Source: Escherichia coli (lineage in GTDB: Bacteria; Pseudomonadota; Gammaproteobacteria; Enterobacterales; Enterobacteriaceae). From it: a DNA stretch of 64,000 bases. The notes beneath the pieces are model-generated. The model made no database searches and was not told where the DNA came from. It saw nothing but the letters and a program-made list of their open reading frames with translations. Shown here one piece after another: positions 1-36,434 of this stretch; within the stretch, counting starts at the first letter, position 1; each line of letters opens with the position of its first letter. A program made the position numbers and the translations under genes. The DNA lies in the NCBI RefSeq assembly GCF_965641715.1, contig NZ_OZ282453.1; one strand, 5' to 3'.

Positions 1-602
1 TAGGCATTGGTTTTGCCGGCGTGGCGCTGGCATTCGGTTTGACCGTTCTGACGATGGCCTTCGCTGTTGGTCATATTTCTGGTGGTCATTTTAACCCAGC
101 GGTCACTATTGGTTTATGGGCTGGCGGACGTTTTCCGGCAAAAGAAGTCGTTGGCTACGTAATTGCCCAGGTTGTCGGCGGTATTGTTGCAGCGGCGCTG
201 CTGTATTTAATTGCCAGTGGTAAAACGGGTTTTGACGCGGCAGCCAGCGGTTTTGCTTCTAACGGTTATGGCGAGCATTCACCAGGCGGTTATTCCATGC
301 TTTCCGCGCTGGTAGTTGAACTGGTATTGAGTGCAGGTTTCCTGTTGGTGATCCACGGCGCAACCGACAAATTCGCTCCGGCAGGTTTTGCGCCGATCGC
401 TATTGGTCTGGCCTTAACCCTGATTCACTTAATCAGTATTCCGGTGACTAACACTTCTGTTAACCCGGCGCGCAGCACCGCAGTTGCCATCTTCCAGGGC
501 GGCTGGGCATTAGAACAACTGTGGTTCTTCTGGGTGGTGCCAATTGTCGGTGGCATTATCGGTGGTCTGATTTACCGGACTCTGCTGGAAAAGCGTAATT
601 AA
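1..602 (+). CDS. aqpZ: aquaporin Z, 5'-truncated at the window edge (frame 3, stop TAA 600-602)
   Basis: Translation [35 protein letters not shown]... contains both MIP-family NPA motifs (NPAVT, NPARS) and matches E. coli AqpZ; the true N-terminus lies upstream of the window. Confidence 0.95.
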
Positions 603-1059
603 TTAGCATTGGCATTTTATCTGCCCTGGTTGTTTTATCTTCGACATTACAAACCGCACGGGTATTGGTGGCGTCAAAATCGCTGAAGCGTTCCCCGAAG
701 GCCGGGGCAGCCCACATGGATGTGGGCTGAGGGTGCGTCTTACAGGACGTTACCTCGCGCCCGACCCGGTAGCCGAAGGGGATAAGCTGAAGGTACCGCG
801 CAGCGGCGATTTTGTTCGCCAGAGCCCGGGGGTGCAGGGGGCGGCGGCGACTGGCCGCCCCCTGCGCGCTCCCTGCGCCAGTGGCTTTATATGGCATTGC
901 ACATGAAAGGAGCGCAACAATGCTAAACACTCATATAGAATTAAAAATCCCCCTCTGATGCATAACATTTCCTTTTAATTGCAACTTTACTCGTCCTTCC
1001 GCTTTCAGTAGTGTGTCATCGCGCATTTCGACTTCTTTCTTTGCAAGGGCTGGGTTTTC

Positions 1060-1959
1060 ATGTTTTCTGGGTTGTTAATCATTCTGGTTCCCCTGATTGT
1101 GGGTTACCTCATTCCGCTTCGCCAACAAGCTGCGTTAAAAGTTATTAATCAGCTATTAAGCTGGATGGTTTACCTTATTCTCTTTTTTATGGGTATCAGT
1201 CTGGCGTTTCTCGATAACCTCGCCAGTAACCTGTTGGCGATTCTGCATTATTCTGCCGTCAGTATTACCGTTATTTTACTGTGTAATATTGCCGCCCTTA
1301 TGTGGCTGGAGCGCGGTCTGCCGTGGCGCAACCACCATCAGCAAGAAAAACTCCCGTCGCGTATTGCGATGGCGCTTGAGTCGCTAAAACTGTGCGGCGT
1401 AGTAGTGATTGGTTTTGCCATTGGCCTGAGTGGACTGGCTTTCTTACAACACGCGACCGAAGCCAGTGAATACACCTTAATTCTGCTACTTTTCCTCGTC
1501 GGTATTCAGTTGCGCAATAATGGCATGACCTTAAAGCAGATTGTCCTTAATCGCCGGGGAATGATTGTCGCCGTGGTGGTGGTTGCCAGTTCATTAATTG
1601 GTGGTTTAATTAACGCCTTTATTCTTGATCTACCCATCAATACCGCGCTGGCAATGGCCTCTGGTTTCGGCTGGTATTCTCTTTCCGGTATTTTATTGAC
1701 CGAATCTTTTGGTCCGGTAATCGGGAGCGCGGCGTTTTTTAATGATCTGGCCCGTGAGCTGATTGCAATTATGTTGATCCCTGGGCTGATTCGCCGCAGC
1801 CGCTCTACCGCACTGGGCTTATGCGGTGCGACGTCGATGGATTTCACCCTGCCCGTTCTTCAACGTACTGGCGGGCTGGATATGGTCCCGGCGGCAATTG
1901 TTCACGGTTTTATTCTTAGCCTGTTAGTGCCGATCCTCATCGCCTTTTTCTCTGCGTAA
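1060..1959 (+). CDS. lysO: lysine exporter LysO (YbjE), 299 aa inner-membrane protein
   Basis: ORF track 1060..1959; hydrophobic multi-helix translation recognised as E. coli YbjE/LysO, same length. Confidence 0.9.
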   Translation: MFSGLLIILVPLIVGYLIPLRQQAALKVINQLLSWMVYLILFFMGISLAFLDNLASNLLAILHYSAVSITVILLCNIAALMWLERGLPWRNHHQQEKLPSRIAMALESLKLCGVVVIGFAIGLSGLAFLQHATEASEYTLILLLFLVGIQLRNNGMTLKQIVLNRRGMIVAVVVVASSLIGGLINAFILDLPINTALAMASGFGWYSLSGILLTESFGPVIGSAAFFNDLARELIAIMLIPGLIRRSRSTALGLCGATSMDFTLPVLQRTGGLDMVPAAIVHGFILSLLVPILIAFFSA

Positions 1960-1992
1960 TACCTCTCTGGCGGTAGATCCCTGCCGCCAAAA

Positions 1993-2006
1993 TTGCGCTA
2001 AATCAA
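1993..2006 (+). promoter_or_regulatory. putative FNR half-site pair TTGCG-N4-ATCAA upstream of hcp
   Basis: ttgcgctaaatcaa resembles the FNR consensus TTGAT-N4-ATCAA; hcp is a known FNR-activated gene; about 100 bp upstream of the hcp ATG. Confidence 0.35.
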
Positions 2007-2064
2007 TCTCCCTTAAAGTTGCATGAAAAATCCCTTTTATCCCCGCGTTAAGCGTCTTAACCTT

Positions 2065-2088
2065 AAACATGTATATTAAATATAACTT
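2065..2088 (+). promoter_or_regulatory. putative NsrR-like AT-rich site in the hcp leader (one good half-site AACATGTATAT)
   Basis: aaacatgtatattaaatataactt; left half resembles the NsrR half-site AAnATGcATnT, right half is weaker; hcp-hcr is NsrR-repressed in E. coli. Confidence 0.25.
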
Positions 2089-2102
2089 TAAAAGGTGTGA
2101 TC

Positions 2103-3755
2103 ATGTTTTGTGTGCAATGTGAACAAACTATCCGTACTCCGGCAGGAAACGGCTGCTCATACGCGCAGGGGATGTGTGGTAAAACGGCGGAAACCTCTGA
2201 CCTTCAGGATTTACTCATCGCGGCGCTGCAAGGGCTTTCTGCCTGGGCGGTAAAAGCGCGTGAATACGGCATCATCAACCACGATGTCGACAGCTTCGCG
2301 CCACGCGCCTTTTTCTCAACCCTGACCAACGTTAACTTCGATTCTCCGCGTATTGTCGGCTACGCTCGTGAAGCGATTGCCTTGCGCGAGGCGCTGAAAG
2401 CACAATGCCTGGCTGTAGATGCCAACGCCCGCGTCGATAACCCGATGGCTGACCTGCAACTGGTGAGCGACGATCTCGGCGAACTGCAACGTCAGGCAGC
2501 AGAATTTACCCCTAACAAAGATAAAGCGGCGATTGGCGAAAACATTCTCGGCCTGCGTCTGCTGTGCCTGTATGGCCTGAAAGGTGCGGCGGCCTATATG
2601 GAACACGCACACGTTCTCGGTCAATACGACAACGATATTTATGCCCAGTATCATAAAATCATGGCGTGGCTGGGGACCTGGCCTGCCGATATGAACGCGC
2701 TTCTTGAGTGTTCAATGGAAATCGGCCAGATGAACTTCAAAGTGATGAGCATTCTGGATGCAGGCGAAACCGGTAAATACGGTCACCCGACGCCAACCCA
2801 GGTCAACGTCAAAGCGACGGCGGGTAAATGCATCCTGATTTCCGGTCACGATCTCAAAGATCTCTACAACCTGCTGGAACAGACCGAAGGCACGGGCGTT
2901 AATGTCTACACCCACGGCGAAATGCTGCCTGCGCATGGCTACCCGGAGCTGCGTAAATTCAAGCATCTGGTCGGTAACTACGGCAGCGGCTGGCAGAATC
3001 AGCAAGTGGAGTTCGCTCGTTTCCCTGGCCCCATCGTGATGACCTCGAACTGCATCATCGACCCAACCGTAGGCGCTTATGACGATCGTATCTGGACCCG
3101 CAGCATCGTTGGCTGGCCTGGCGTGCGTCATCTGGATGGCGAAGATTTCTCTGCGGTCATTGCCCAGGCGCAACAAATGGCAGGCTTCCCATACAGCGAA
3201 ATTCCGCACCTGATCACCGTGGGCTTTGGCCGCCAGACGCTGCTTGGCGCAGCGGATACGCTAATTGATCTGGTGAGCCGTGAAAAACTGCGTCATATCT
3301 TCCTGCTTGGTGGCTGTGACGGCGCACGCGGCGAACGTCACTACTTCACCGATTTCGCCACCAGCGTGCCGGATGACTGCCTGATCCTGACCCTCGCCTG
3401 TGGTAAATATCGCTTTAACAAACTTGAGTTTGGCGATATCGAAGGTCTGCCGCGTCTGGTAGATGCAGGTCAATGTAACGATGCTTACTCAGCGATTATT
3501 CTGGCGGTAACGCTGGCAGAAAAACTGGGCTGCGGTGTCAACGATCTGCCGCTGTCGCTGGTGCTCTCCTGGTTTGAACAGAAAGCGATTGTCATTCTGC
3601 TGACGCTGCTTTCTCTGGGCGTGAAAAATATCGTCACCGGCCCGACTGCACCTGGTTTCCTGACACCAGATCTGCTGGCGGTGCTGAACGAGAAATTCGG
3701 CCTGCGTTCTATCACCACTGTTGAAGAAGACATGAAGCAACTGTTGAGCGCGTAA
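2103..3755 (+). CDS. hcp: hybrid-cluster protein (hydroxylamine reductase), 550 aa
   Basis: ORF track 2097..3755 trimmed to ATG 2103 (MFCVQCEQT...); N-terminal Cys cluster CxxC...C...C; matches E. coli Hcp. Confidence 0.95.
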
Positions 3756-33268: not shown

Positions 33269-34954
33269 GTGAATATAAACGTCGCCGAATTGTTAAATGG
33301 GAATTACATTCTGTTATTATTTGTGGTCCTCGCGCTTGGGCTATGTCTCGGAAAGTTACGACTTGGTTCGATCCAACTGGGTAATTCCATTGGCGTTTTA
33401 GTCGTATCGCTGTTATTAGGCCAACAACATTTCAGCATTAACACCGATGCGCTTAATCTTGGCTTTATGCTGTTTATTTTCTGCGTCGGGGTCGAAGCCG
33501 GACCGAACTTTTTTTCCATTTTTTTTCGCGATGGGAAAAATTACCTAATGTTAGCACTGGTGATGGTTGGCAGTGCGCTGGTGATCGCCTTAGGGTTAGG
33601 TAAGCTGTTTGGCTGGGATATTGGCCTGACGGCCGGTATGTTAGCAGGCTCTATGACGTCGACACCGGTTCTGGTCGGTGCTGGCGATACACTGCGTCAT
33701 TCCGGCATGGAAAGCAGGCAACTCTCACTGGCACTGGATAATCTGAGCCTCGGGTATGCCTTAACCTATTTAATCGGTCTGGTGAGTTTGATTGTTGGTG
33801 CGCGTTACTTGCCGAAATTGCAGCATCAGGACTTACAGACCAGCGCCCAGCAAATCGCCCGCGAACGTGGCCTGGACACTGATGCCAACCGTAAGGTTTA
33901 TTTACCGGTGATCCGCGCCTATCGCGTCGGCCCGGAGCTGGTGGCCTGGACCGACGGCAAAAATCTGCGTGAACTGGGTATTTATCGACAAACCGGCTGC
34001 TACATTGAACGTATTCGACGTAACGGGATTCTGGCAAATCCAGACGGTGATGCCGTGCTACAAATGGGCGATGAAATAGCGTTGGTAGGCTATCCCGACG
34101 CCCATGCCCGACTCGATCCCAGCTTCCGTAACGGCAAAGAAGTTTTCGATCGTGACCTTCTCGACATGCGTATCGTCACTGAAGAAGTGGTCGTTAAAAA
34201 CCATAACGCTGTAGGTAAACGTCTCGCACAACTGAAGTTGACCGATCACGGTTGCTTCCTTAACCGCGTCATTCGTAGCCAGATTGAGATGCCGATAGAT
34301 GACAACGTCGTGCTTAACAAAGGTGACGTTTTACAAGTCAGCGGCGATGCCCGCCGCGTAAAAACCATCGCCGATCGCATCGGCTTTATCTCGATTCACA
34401 GCCAGGTCACTGACTTGCTGGCATTCTGCGCCTTCTTTGTTATTGGGCTGATGATCGGGATGATCACATTCCAGTTCAGCACATTCAGTTTCGGCATGGG
34501 GAACGCTGCCGGGTTGTTATTCGCCGGAATTATGCTGGGCTTTATGCGTGCTAACCACCCGACCTTCGGTTACATTCCGCAAGGTGCATTAAGCATGGTG
34601 AAAGAGTTCGGCTTAATGGTGTTTATGGCAGGCGTTGGTCTGAGCGCCGGTAGCGGTATTAATAACGGCCTGGGCGCGATTGGCGGTCAGATGTTGATTG
34701 CCGGATTGATTGTCAGTCTGGTGCCCGTGGTTATCTGTTTCTTGTTCGGTGCTTATGTATTGCGAATGAACCGCGCACTGTTGTTTGGCGCAATGATGGG
34801 CGCACGCACCTGCGCGCCGGCAATGGAGATCATCAGTGATACAGCTCGCAGTAACATCCCGGCGCTGGGCTATGCGGGCACCTACGCAATCGCCAACGTC
34901 CTGCTGACGCTGGCAGGGACAATCATCGTCATGGTATGGCCAGGATTAGGATAA
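33269..34954 (+). CDS. ybjL: AAE-family transporter YbjL (two TrkA-C domains), 561 aa
   Basis: ORF track; matches E. coli YbjL. Confidence 0.9.
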
Positions 34955-35030: not shown

Positions 35031-35109
35031 GCCACTGCTTTTCTTTGATGTCCCCATTTTGTGGAGCCCATCAACCCCGCCATTTCGGTTCAAGGTTGGT
35101 GGGTTTTTT
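35031..35109 (+). ncRNA. rybB: RybB small RNA (sigma-E-dependent, Hfq-binding), 79 nt
   Basis: gccactgcttttctttgatgtccccattttgtggagcccatcaaccccgccatttcggttcaaggttggtgggtttttt matches the known RybB sequence, including the terminator hairpin and U-tract; sigma-E-like -35 GAACTT and -10 TCTTA upstream; lies 76 bp after ybjL as in K-12. Confidence 0.9.
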
Positions 35110-35286
35110 GTTATCTAAATCCCCAAAATCTCCATTCTCTCCCCTGTCCAAAGCCTTATCTGACTGTCCTCTCTTCCAGAAAATCATTCTTTTTCGTACA
35201 AAGAACAAATAGTTATTGAGAAGCTTATTTAAAAACCTGAACAAAATCGGTAATATTCCTGGCTTTGCAATACACAGACTTTTTAT

Positions 35287-35838
35287 ATGGATATTAACGA
35301 GCTAAAAGAGTGCCTTCATCTGGAAGTCATTGGTAAAAGTAGGAAATTCACATGGCGTAAAGTCATTGTAAGGGCGATGAAACATCGGCGCGTTCGTTAC
35401 TTATTCTGGTGGCGTATCGCTAAATACGGCCATGAGAAAGGTGGTTACTGGCGGAAAATTGCTGGCAAAATTGAGCGAAAAATCCTTGATAGTTATGACG
35501 TTAAAATCCCATTAGTCGTTGATATAGGCAAAGGGTTGGATATTTCATACTTAACGGGAGTTGTTATCGGTCATAACGTAAAAATTGGTGAGAATTGTTC
35601 CATCAAACCCGGCGTAACCATCGGCCTACGTGGCCATTTTGACGAAATGGATATACAGATTGGCAACAATGTCACCATTGGTTGCAACGCCTCCATTCTG
35701 GGCGGCAAAGTCTATATTGGAGATAACGTCACGATAGGTGCACATGCATTGGTTTTGCATGATATCCCAGAAAACTCCATTTTTATCAATAAAATAGAAT
35801 ACGAGATTATCCCGAAAAAAGTTATAGCCGAAATGTGA
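35287..35838 (+). CDS. hexapeptide-repeat acetyltransferase, serine-acetyltransferase-like (CysE/WcaB family), 183 aa; not part of the K-12 backbone
   Basis: Tandem hexapeptide repeats (VVIGHNVKIGENCSIKPGVTIG ... IQIGNNVTIGCNASILGGKVYIGDNVTIGAHALV) and an SAT-like N-terminal region; no obvious SD; sits in lower-GC DNA between rybB and rcdA. Confidence 0.7.
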   Translation: MDINELKECLHLEVIGKSRKFTWRKVIVRAMKHRRVRYLFWWRIAKYGHEKGGYWRKIAGKIERKILDSYDVKIPLVVDIGKGLDISYLTGVVIGHNVKIGENCSIKPGVTIGLRGHFDEMDIQIGNNVTIGCNASILGGKVYIGDNVTIGAHALVLHDIPENSIFINKIEYEIIPKKVIAEM

Positions 35839-35897
35839 TCGCCAGTGAGATGATTAGCGCTATCGAGGGAGGTGTTGCGTCTTATCGACCTCTGTAG

Positions 35898-36434
35898 CTA
35901 CCCAGCAACCCTCTCAACCATCCTCAAAATCTCCTCGCGCGATAGCGGCTTACGGTCGGTGACAAAATGCAGCGTCATCCCCTCAATAAACGCATCAAGC
36001 GCGCGGGCGGTTCCGGGTTCAAACCATTGTTCGAGCGTTTGCTGACTGCGCTGCATCCAGTTTTGCATTACCGTTTTTAATAGCGGTTTTCGGCTAGCCA
36101 GCGCGTAGAGCTGGTACATCAGCTCCATGTTATCCGGCGTTGCAACCTGTGAGCTGTAGATCATATCGGTGATAGCCTGGCATGCGCCTTGAGCATCACT
36201 AACATCGCTAAAAAATGCCTGATATTGCCGGGACATGATCTCAGTAAAACTGCTGAACGCCTCCAGCAACAACTCATCAATTCCTGAAAAATAGTAGGTC
36301 ATCGATCCCAACGGTACCCCGGCAAGGGTAGCAATTTTGCGGTGCGTAACAGCATGTATTCCGTAAAGTTTCACCGCCTCCAGCGTGGCCTGGATAATTT
36401 TTTCTCGCCGTTGCGGATCGTTAGCGCGACGCAT
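35898..36434 (-). CDS. rcdA: TetR-family regulator RcdA (YbjK), 178 aa
   Basis: ORF track 35898..36464 (TTG) trimmed to ATG 36434 ([21 protein letters not shown]...). Confidence 0.9.

Follow-up and report, generated by a model that had tools for sequence, protein, structure and literature searches.

What is a solitary gene for an acetyltransferase-like hexapeptide-repeat protein doing beside the small RNA (sRNA) gene rybB of Escherichia coli? The question arises from a stretch of 64,000 nt of contig NZ_OZ282453.1 (RefSeq assembly GCF_965641715.1), hereafter the window, in which rybB and the regulator gene rcdA, separated by 19 bp in E. coli K-12, stand 788 bp apart (35110..35897) and enclose an open reading frame (ORF) of 183 amino acids. 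A first-pass annotation, made from the letters of the window, had left this gene unexplained and offered several readings: an enzyme that O-acetylates a surface polymer, the remnant of a larger cassette, a paralogue of CysE, or a gene read through from rybB. We propose that it is a phage moron, left behind as a single-gene cassette at rybB, a hot spot of prophage integration, with a role at the envelope or at a phage receptor, and we put the probability of this statement as a whole at roughly 0.55. Its two parts differ in firmness, the origin as a stranded phage cassette being very probable and the envelope or receptor role tentative, somewhat short of even odds. Among the earlier suggestions, the remnant of a larger cassette and the action on a surface polymer remain the best leads.

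The Insert Between rybB and rcdA

The gene order in the window is ybjL-rybB-insert-rcdA-ybjJ, in DNA of E. coli type, and the first-pass description of the locus stands up to comparison. The rybB gene, described as intact and 76 nt downstream of ybjL, does start 76 nt past the ybjL stop at 34954, and it is recognised by the Rfam model RF00110 (35034..35112, 104 bits); the gap to rcdA, estimated at about 790 bp, measures 788 bp; and the 183-residue β-helix ORF is indeed solitary, lies in lower-GC DNA and has no Shine-Dalgarno sequence. Comparison with the K-12 interval has shown that the gene is absent there, and no frame-disrupting lesion relative to its homologues is present. By alignment to K-12 the insert spans 35120..35880 (761 bp) and splits the K-12 spacer as ATCTAAA/A/CTTATC, and an extra 9-nt difference from K-12 lies at 35887..35895, right before the rcdA stop. 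The GC content of the insert is 0.375-0.41, compared to about 0.51-0.53 in the flanks. The insert holds a single ORF with zero internal stops and no partner genes, and Pfam Hexapep (PF00132) matches the ORF product in two stretches with 53.5 bits against a cutoff of 27. Genomes or loci that have the cassette carrying this ORF are denoted AT+ below and those without it AT-, and loci compared with the window bear numbers prefixed with L. The features of the locus are as follows.

35031..35109, plus strand: rybB sRNA gene, intact by alignment to K-12 b4417; its final 11 nt belong to the attachment (att) core.
35099..35112, plus strand: att core (A/G)TGGGTTTTTTGTT of rybB-integrating 186/Fels-2-like prophages, present as attL and attR in L017 and as attR in L002.
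35113..35119, plus strand: host-side arm ATCTAAA between att core and insert, identical to K-12; divergence starts at 35120.
35120..35286, plus strand: non-coding left arm of the insert, rich in pyrimidines and found in AT+ genomes alone (a distant blastn search returned the 70 AT+ genomes only).
35243..35259, plus strand: candidate own promoter, AAAATCGGTAATATTCC, with the -10-like hexamer TAATAT (35251..35256) 31-36 nt 5′ of the ATG, below the 9/12 threshold of the promoter scan.
35287..35838, plus strand: ORF of 183 amino acids (RefSeq WP_000353913.1, "serine acetyltransferase"; PHROG 2154), four N-terminal helices and a left-handed β-helix.
35503..35505, plus strand: codon of K73, at the position of the catalytic Asp (Asp143 in E. 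coli, Asp139 in Haemophilus influenzae and Asp147 in Neisseria gonorrhoeae serine acetyltransferase).
35548..35550, plus strand: codon of Y88, at the position of the catalytic His (His158, His154 and His162 in the same three enzymes).
35839..35880, plus strand: right non-coding tail of the insert, in which neither a terminator nor a remnant of att or rybB can be recognised.
35898..36434, minus strand: rcdA, a TetR-family regulator gene convergent with the ORF and displaced from its K-12 spot 19 nt off the rybB terminator.

A Family of Phage Tail Modules

The protein belongs to PHROG 2154, a phage family of unknown function, which it matches with E = 5e-69 over residues 2-177 (profile positions 5-181 of 185). 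Relatives with 76% identity are found in 47-kb RepA phage-plasmids, in IncY P1-like phage-plasmids and in P2-like prophages, and alleles with 43-55% identity in Hafnia phage yong2 (55%), Citrobacter phiNP (43%) and prophages of cryptic Escherichia species. In these phage and prophage relatives, including L004-L010, L013 and L102, the gene always lies directly after a tail-fibre assembly (Caudo_TAP) gene and convergent with it; in IMG/VR, 24 of 28 loci have Caudo_TAP directly downstream, and the remaining four either leave no space for that gene or hold a truncated copy. Wiles et al. (2013, PMC3573123) described such a slot, which follows the tail-fibre gene and is used in the opposite direction, as "moron position 2" of P2-like phages. 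The first-pass annotation had named polysaccharide or O-antigen clusters as the usual home of such acetyltransferases; this family instead resides, in temperate phages, right behind the tail-fibre assembly gene.

The window copy itself has no tail genes around it and does not show this tail-fibre-adjacent arrangement; it is derived from the class of tail-fibre-adjacent morons rather than a resident member of it. Homology at the DNA level between the window copy and the phage copies extends from the ATG to about 45 nt short of the stop codon. The product ends in AEM, and a native C-terminus (PKK...) is common to the closest homologues; since they share it and only 59 nt separate the ORF stop from rcdA, a fragment of a tail-fibre assembly gene 3′ of the ORF was ruled out. 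Capture by a Cin/Gin/Hin-type invertase was also considered, because the gene occupies the place of an alternative tail-fibre segment, and was rejected: no crossover-like site of at least 14/20 was found at the borders of the window insert, L015, L016 or L004, the positive control L017 scoring 18/20.

The rybB Integration Site

It has been published that rybB is an integration site of Felsduovirus prophages, and the K-12 rybB-rcdA junction is interrupted in 1195 of 5422 genomes (about 22%). The typical occupant is a 34-kb 186/Fels-2-like prophage with the att core ATGGGTTTTTTGTT, and the left border of the insert falls 7 nt past this core, that is, in the host arm. A simple 186-like prophage remnant bounded by the att core was rejected, since the insert begins 7 nt beyond the core and its right border is coreless, and the insert is therefore not a simple prophage stump. 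The hot spot accounts for the location of the gene better than a link to sigma-E does. The sole difference between rybB of the window and that of K-12 is an A-to-G change at 35099, in the 3′ arm of the terminator stem (GGTTGGTGGG, compared to GGTTGATGGG in K-12). G is present at this position in all 12 of the other AT+ loci with a readable site, A in K-12, in the lysogen L017 and in Salmonella, and G also stands on the phage side of a prophage attR in strain 100181. G35099 could have hitch-hiked with the cassette, or it could be the sign of a rybB 3′ end that came from an element.

The two closest relatives of the gene, L016 and L015, are likewise solitary and att-linked, lying just downstream of RNA genes that serve as integration sites. 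In L016, whose protein is 79% identical, an orphan 3′ half of rybB lies 14 nt after the copy; none of 2000 shuffles reaches its score, and Rfam recognises it as a partial RybB. It runs on into the native downstream neighbour of rybB in Salmonella-type genomes; judged from its sequence, the junction is of attR type. A complete prophage lies between rybB and the cassette in strain 100181, and L016 probably has the same prophage-cassette tandem. L148, a 47% identical copy of the His clade described below, sits in the same rybB-side islet, between direct repeats, about 40 nt and 32 nt long, that contain a core-like motif. These repeats (73..104, 1007..1077 and 2197..2238) contain GTGGCTTTT(TT)GTTGATGAC and separate a prophage end, a two-gene islet and the acetyltransferase homologue, a pattern that looks like serial integrations at one att site. 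Another copy (L015, 77% identical) stands 160 nt after a tRNA(CAU) gene (670..745), next to a UDG/mug-like gene, and the other end of that contig holds the C-terminal part of an IS3-family transposase (1943..2107). A His-clade homologue with 49% identity (L106, 4001..4552) lies alone between copA and cueR of a Citrobacter-type genome with no phage genes nearby.

Other material at this junction can be noted beside these copies. In Salmonella enterica CP191473.1 (L147, 4161..7300) the rybB-rcdA interval is a different islet of 3.1 kb with 42% GC, encoding proteins of 233, 211 and 74 amino acids with zero Pfam matches and no acetyltransferase homologue; the interval is a variable islet locus across Enterobacteriaceae. 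In the window, the 15 nt at 35119..35133 (ATCCCCAAAATCTCC), comprising A35119 and the first 14 nt of the insert, recur with 14/15 identity at 35920..35934, in the 3′ end of rcdA (ATCCTCAAAATCTCC). The two copies are 801 nt apart, with approximately 0.02 chance matches estimated for the region, and may be the footprint of a microhomology-mediated recombination. An inverted repeat of 13/15 nt between the insert tail and the rcdA end was estimated to be at chance level and set aside. The right tail has a fold z-score of -0.96, and an 11-nt motif that it has in common with L015 (10/11 identical) is a weak match.

Fold and Active Site

The protein was modelled with AlphaFold from an alignment of 96 sequences, giving four N-terminal helices followed by a left-handed β-helix at a mean predicted local distance difference test (pLDDT) of 93; an earlier model from 35 sequences, with a pLDDT of 48-68 in the β-helix and no significant Foldseek matches, was discarded. 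All of the top 50 Foldseek matches in the PDB are serine acetyltransferases (probability 1.0, template modelling score 0.56-0.76), and the best PDB match by sequence is a serine acetyltransferase as well (E = 9e-13). The predicted fold is thus CysE-like rather than NodL/LacA-like, and the protein is presumably a trimer. By curated models, however, the protein is neither WcaB- nor NodL-like, and no cutoff is passed: the best-scoring NCBIfam model is EpsC (NF041874) with 81.5 bits against 150, WcaB (TIGR04016) reaches 55 bits against 194.65, and CysE reaches 71.5 bits against 210.65 (TIGR01172) and 44.6 against 397 (NF008349). The defence models of PADLOC-DB 2.0 gave zero family matches at E <= 0.01.

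In the serine acetyltransferase of N. gonorrhoeae, Asp147 and His162 form the catalytic dyad, and Asp161, Glu170, Arg196 and His197 also belong to the active site (PMC8786284). HMMER alignments to PDB 6wye, 4n69 and 1ssm, read against that study, place these six residues (D147, D161, H162, E170, R196 and H197) at K73, S87, Y88, H96, M121 and D122 of the window protein, so that 0 of 6 are conserved. Given the fact that all six are replaced and the curated cutoffs are missed, the RefSeq product name "serine acetyltransferase" is not supported, nor is a place for the protein in the cysteine pathway. Of 120 homologue clusters, 17 have Tyr in place of the catalytic His and the others have the His itself; all 17 are at least 51% identical to the window protein. 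Within the Tyr clade the position of the catalytic Asp is taken by K, T, V or I and the Tyr is invariant, whereas nearly all of the approximately 100 other clusters keep both the acid and the His. The Tyr clade is carried by isolated phages (Hafnia phage yong2 and vB_EcoM-613R2) and by hundreds of phage-plasmids, and the N-terminal motifs E13, F21, W23 and FWWR are common to the Tyr and His clades. Non-synonymous differences per site (pN) in the Tyr clade amount to 0.13-0.20 and synonymous ones (pS) to 0.73-0.90, at which synonymous sites are saturated; close pairs give a ratio of non-synonymous to synonymous substitution rates (dN/dS) of 0.05-0.08, below 0.1. These rates indicate that the clade is under strong purifying selection and not decaying, and its proteins would then have either a non-canonical chemistry or a binding function in place of acetyl transfer.

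The alternative that fares best concerns this point. The protein could be a non-catalytic pseudoenzyme that binds a nucleotide-sugar or undecaprenyl-linked intermediate, or that poisons a host β-helix acyltransferase through mixed trimers. Asp and His have been lost together, with a variable residue in place of the Asp and an invariant Tyr in place of the His; every mapped position of the active site has changed; and purifying selection has nonetheless stayed strong and the N-terminal motifs have been kept in common with the His clade, all of which would fit a pseudoenzyme. However, some left-handed β-helix N-acyltransferases work without a catalytic base, and loss of the His is therefore no proof of lost catalysis. 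We regard the pseudoenzyme as unlikely; it bears on the mechanism alone and would agree with an origin as a phage moron.

Distribution and Conservation in E. coli

Of 5426 complete E. coli genomes, a set to which the strain of the window does not belong, 70 (1.3%) carry the 788-bp interval, with 99.6-99.9% identity and one copy each, and these carriers include the O145:H28 lineage. In both loci inspected it lies between the rybB side and rcdA. The identical protein (WP_000353913.1) is recorded in more than 10,000 assembly blocks; the ybjL-AT-rcdA context, AT being the ORF, was found in all 10 distinct places obtained from the 24 blocks read, and in all 30 rows shown the ORF is annotated as a coding sequence and not as a pseudogene. 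Between the window and 13 other AT+ loci the differences fall at 35239, 35279 and 35864, outside the ORF, and at one synonymous site, 35700. Since 10 of the 13 were picked by protein identity, only L001, L002 and L136 are unbiased in this respect, and in these three the protein is identical and substitutions are only non-coding or synonymous. At 35279, 8 nt 5′ of the ATG, the window has C and all 13 other loci examined have T, a strain-specific change in the presumed 5′ untranslated region.

AT+ genomes also differ in how often the neighbouring integration site is occupied. An extra insertion between rybB and the cassette is found in 3 of 70 AT+ genomes, compared to a disrupted junction in 1125 of 5352 AT- genomes (about 21%), an odds ratio of 0.17 with a Fisher p of 1.5e-4 that is uncorrected for clonality, many AT+ genomes being O145:H28. 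Lineage effects, the changed host arm of attB or an exclusion exerted by the gene product could each account for the depletion.

That the gene is a functionless relic of an old integration, decaying and kept as harmless, would agree with several of these observations: it is an orphan for which no partner genes, Shine-Dalgarno sequence or strong promoter were found, its catalytic dyad is absent, it occurs in so small a share of complete genomes, and a sister copy is truncated by an insertion sequence (IS). This sister copy, in the P2-like prophage of L008 (3714..5543), has the IS, with an rve transposase, directly 5′ of the homologue, its N-terminus is altered, and comparison with a near-identical allele gives a dN/dS of 0.83, a decay that takes place inside a prophage. 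On the other side, the ORF of the window is intact, with an unchanged protein even in the AT+ genomes chosen independently of it, annotation as a coding sequence in all 30 rows and an exact counterpart in more than 10,000 assembly blocks; the loss of the dyad is old, being common to phage and phage-plasmid copies with dN/dS below 0.1; and a -10-like element is conserved among solo copies. Taken together, a decaying relic is rather improbable.

Expression

The element just mentioned is AAAATCnGTAAnAT, which stands about 45 nt 5′ of the ATG in the window, L015 and L016 within otherwise unrelated DNA, and which is a candidate -10 element of the solo copies. The first-pass annotation had considered that the gene might be read through from rybB, and in the extended form of this idea the gene would be expressed mainly from sigma-E-driven transcripts that pass the rybB terminator, and would belong to the RybB response. 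The ORF does lie on the same strand, 178 nt 3′ of rybB, with no strong promoter between them. However, a stem of 14 bp and, behind it, a tract of six U (UUUUUUGUU) make up the rybB terminator, and the change at 35099 yields a G-U pair with which the hairpin still folds at -22.7 kcal/mol. With a strong terminator preceding the gene and a conserved -10-like element upstream of the ORF, read-through is unlikely as the main source. Moreover, a sigma-E context is missing from the phage homologues and from two solo copies, L015 at its tRNA gene and L106 between copA and cueR, and an entire prophage intervenes between rybB and the gene in strain 100181. For these reasons we consider membership in the RybB response very improbable. 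Downstream, no terminator was found 3′ of the ORF; rcdA and the ORF are convergent without a recognisable terminator between them (35839..35960), and an antisense overlap of their transcripts is therefore possible.

A Plausible Scenario and Its Difficulties

The scenario that we favour is a single-gene phage cassette lodged at the rybB hot spot. The family, of about 180 amino acids, would be a moron of temperate myoviruses and phage-plasmids residing after the tail-fibre assembly gene. The gene probably arrived with an element that integrates into the 3′ end of rybB, either aboard it or as its att-proximal end, after which the remaining element and the right-hand att copy would have been lost; because of that last loss the gene would be locked in place. 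Expression would take place in the cytoplasm from its own weak promoter. By analogy with short CysE-like β-helix enzymes of polysaccharide clusters, which acetylate lipid-linked sugars at the cytoplasmic face, the target may be a sugar of an envelope glycan during its assembly at the inner face of the inner membrane (lipopolysaccharide core, O-unit or enterobacterial common antigen), and in the Tyr clade the action may be binding. The receptor of the co-travelling tail fibres would thereby be altered, leading to superinfection exclusion or phage resistance, and the host may keep the gene as a protection against phages. Genes that disable the receptor of their own phage typically lie beside the receptor-binding genes (T5 llp, phi80 cor), and by this second analogy the gene would be a factor of the lysogenic-conversion type.

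Several observations weigh against this scenario. No copy of the att core was detectable where the E. coli insert ends on the right, and local alignment of the right tail (35839..35880) with rybB scores no higher than that of shuffled sequence. With the left border lying 7 nt beyond the known prophage core, an ordinary illegitimate insertion is possible. Outside the 70 AT+ loci, searches of phage records, plasmids, IMG/VR and the 5426 E. coli genomes returned no parental phage with the window allele or the left arm; the left arm (35120..35286) had zero matches in the viral contigs searched, and of two metagenome scans the first returned nothing and the second the same E. coli locus only. In a genome-wide species scan, relatives in other genera were mostly not beside recognisable tail genes, although the scan returned only relatives of at most 45% identity and says little on the close clade. 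The gene has been seen together with a swapped tail-fibre assembly gene in a paper on P1-like phage-plasmids, where its presence was called unexplained. As to expression, no Shine-Dalgarno sequence was found before the ATG, and the scan for sigma-70 sites of at least 9/12 returned none for the ORF, that is, no strong promoter. Finally, acetyl transfer by the window protein is itself in doubt, with the canonical dyad and every mapped substrate residue replaced.

Relation to Known Systems

The serine acetyltransferases (PDB 1t3d, 1ssm and 6wye) resemble the window protein in their helical N-terminal domain and left-handed β-helix, and in CysE a tail terminated by Ile binds CysK. That the gene is a CysE paralogue making O-acetylserine, which the first-pass annotation had allowed and which the RefSeq name and the nearness to these structures in sequence and fold would suggest, can practically be dismissed, since both CysE cutoffs are missed widely, other residues stand in place of the Asp-His dyad and of those that bind serine, the N-terminal domain is cut down to four helices, the C-terminus AEM lacks the CysK-binding tail, and the family resides in phage tail modules and accessory DNA instead of the cysteine regulon. 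WcaB and EpsC are comparable in size and architecture, and the His sister clade keeps an acid and a His as they do, suggesting a sugar as acceptor; however, the window protein scores far below their cutoffs, its clade is dyad-less, and its neighbours are ybjL, rybB, rcdA and ybjJ rather than a polysaccharide cluster.

Among phage-borne genes, the closest parallel in position is neaT of the P2-like prophage phi-b0847 of E. coli CFT073, a low-GC gene of acyltransferase type in moron position 2 which its authors treat as a lysogenic-conversion gene, the prophage being named after b0847 (ybjL), the gene adjoining rybB (Wiles et al., 2013, PMC3573123). NeaT, however, is a membrane protein of the unrelated Acyl_transf_3 fold (PF01757), and its gene is still in a prophage whereas that of the window is alone. 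A parallel in activity is NeuO of prophage CUS-3, a phage-borne hexapeptide-repeat O-acetyltransferase that modifies the K1 capsule, a surface polysaccharide and phage receptor; NeuO keeps its catalytic His, has phase-variable repeats and is encoded beside the tailspike in a P22-like phage, and it is not among the PDB sequence matches of the window protein at E <= 0.001. The llp gene of T5 and the cor genes of phi80 and N15 are likewise small genes, expressed in the infected or lysogenic cell, that inactivate the receptor of their phage and are linked to its tail-fibre or receptor-binding gene (PMC9586334). Their products, however, are outer-membrane lipoproteins binding FhuA, and that of the window is a predicted cytoplasmic β-helix protein. 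Integrase-less remnants flanked by att sites are known as cis-mobilizable elements and from the sopE moron cassette of SopE-phi. These are similar in that a lone cargo gene lies with att-like repeats (L016, L148), a prophage stands in tandem with it (100181) and homology is limited to the cassette, and dissimilar in that the E. coli copy has no right-hand att repeat and the cassette is absent from the viral contigs searched. A bolder extension, which we offer as speculation with the odds well against it, is that PHROG 2154 is an unrecognised class of tail-fibre-linked conversion proteins whose dyad-less branch masks or remodels the receptor by non-canonical means, and that the gene could spread as an integrase-less, att-bounded cassette with phages integrating at rybB or at tRNA genes.

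Other Features of the Window

Two features lie well upstream of the locus. A transposase ORF of 372 amino acids (20033..21151, minus strand), which we take to be of the IS186/IS4 family, splits a sulfatase-like gene into halves at 18636..19832 and 21158..21466; this stretch is absent from the complete E. coli genomes that best match a 24-kb query and is multi-copy elsewhere. Rfam also identifies naRNA4, a nucleoid-associated RNA derived from repetitive extragenic palindromic (REP) sequences, at 17596..17676 on the minus strand (74 bits).

Implications

The gene has already been annotated under a wrong name, phage morons and β-helix acyltransferases are known kinds, and the solo cassette of the Tyr clade is a variant of these. 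The mis-naming affects more than 10,000 assembly blocks, including those of the O145:H28 outbreak lineage. The paired loss of catalytic residues under purifying selection provides a natural experiment on how β-helix acyltransferases change function, and the att-linked solo copies illustrate how phage morons may get stranded in chromosomes. If the proposed scenario is true, it would give a function to a family carried by many P1-like, P2-like and 47-kb phage-plasmids beside their host-range genes, and certain pathogenic lineages of E. coli would possess a domesticated phage gene that alters their surface glycans or their susceptibility to phages.

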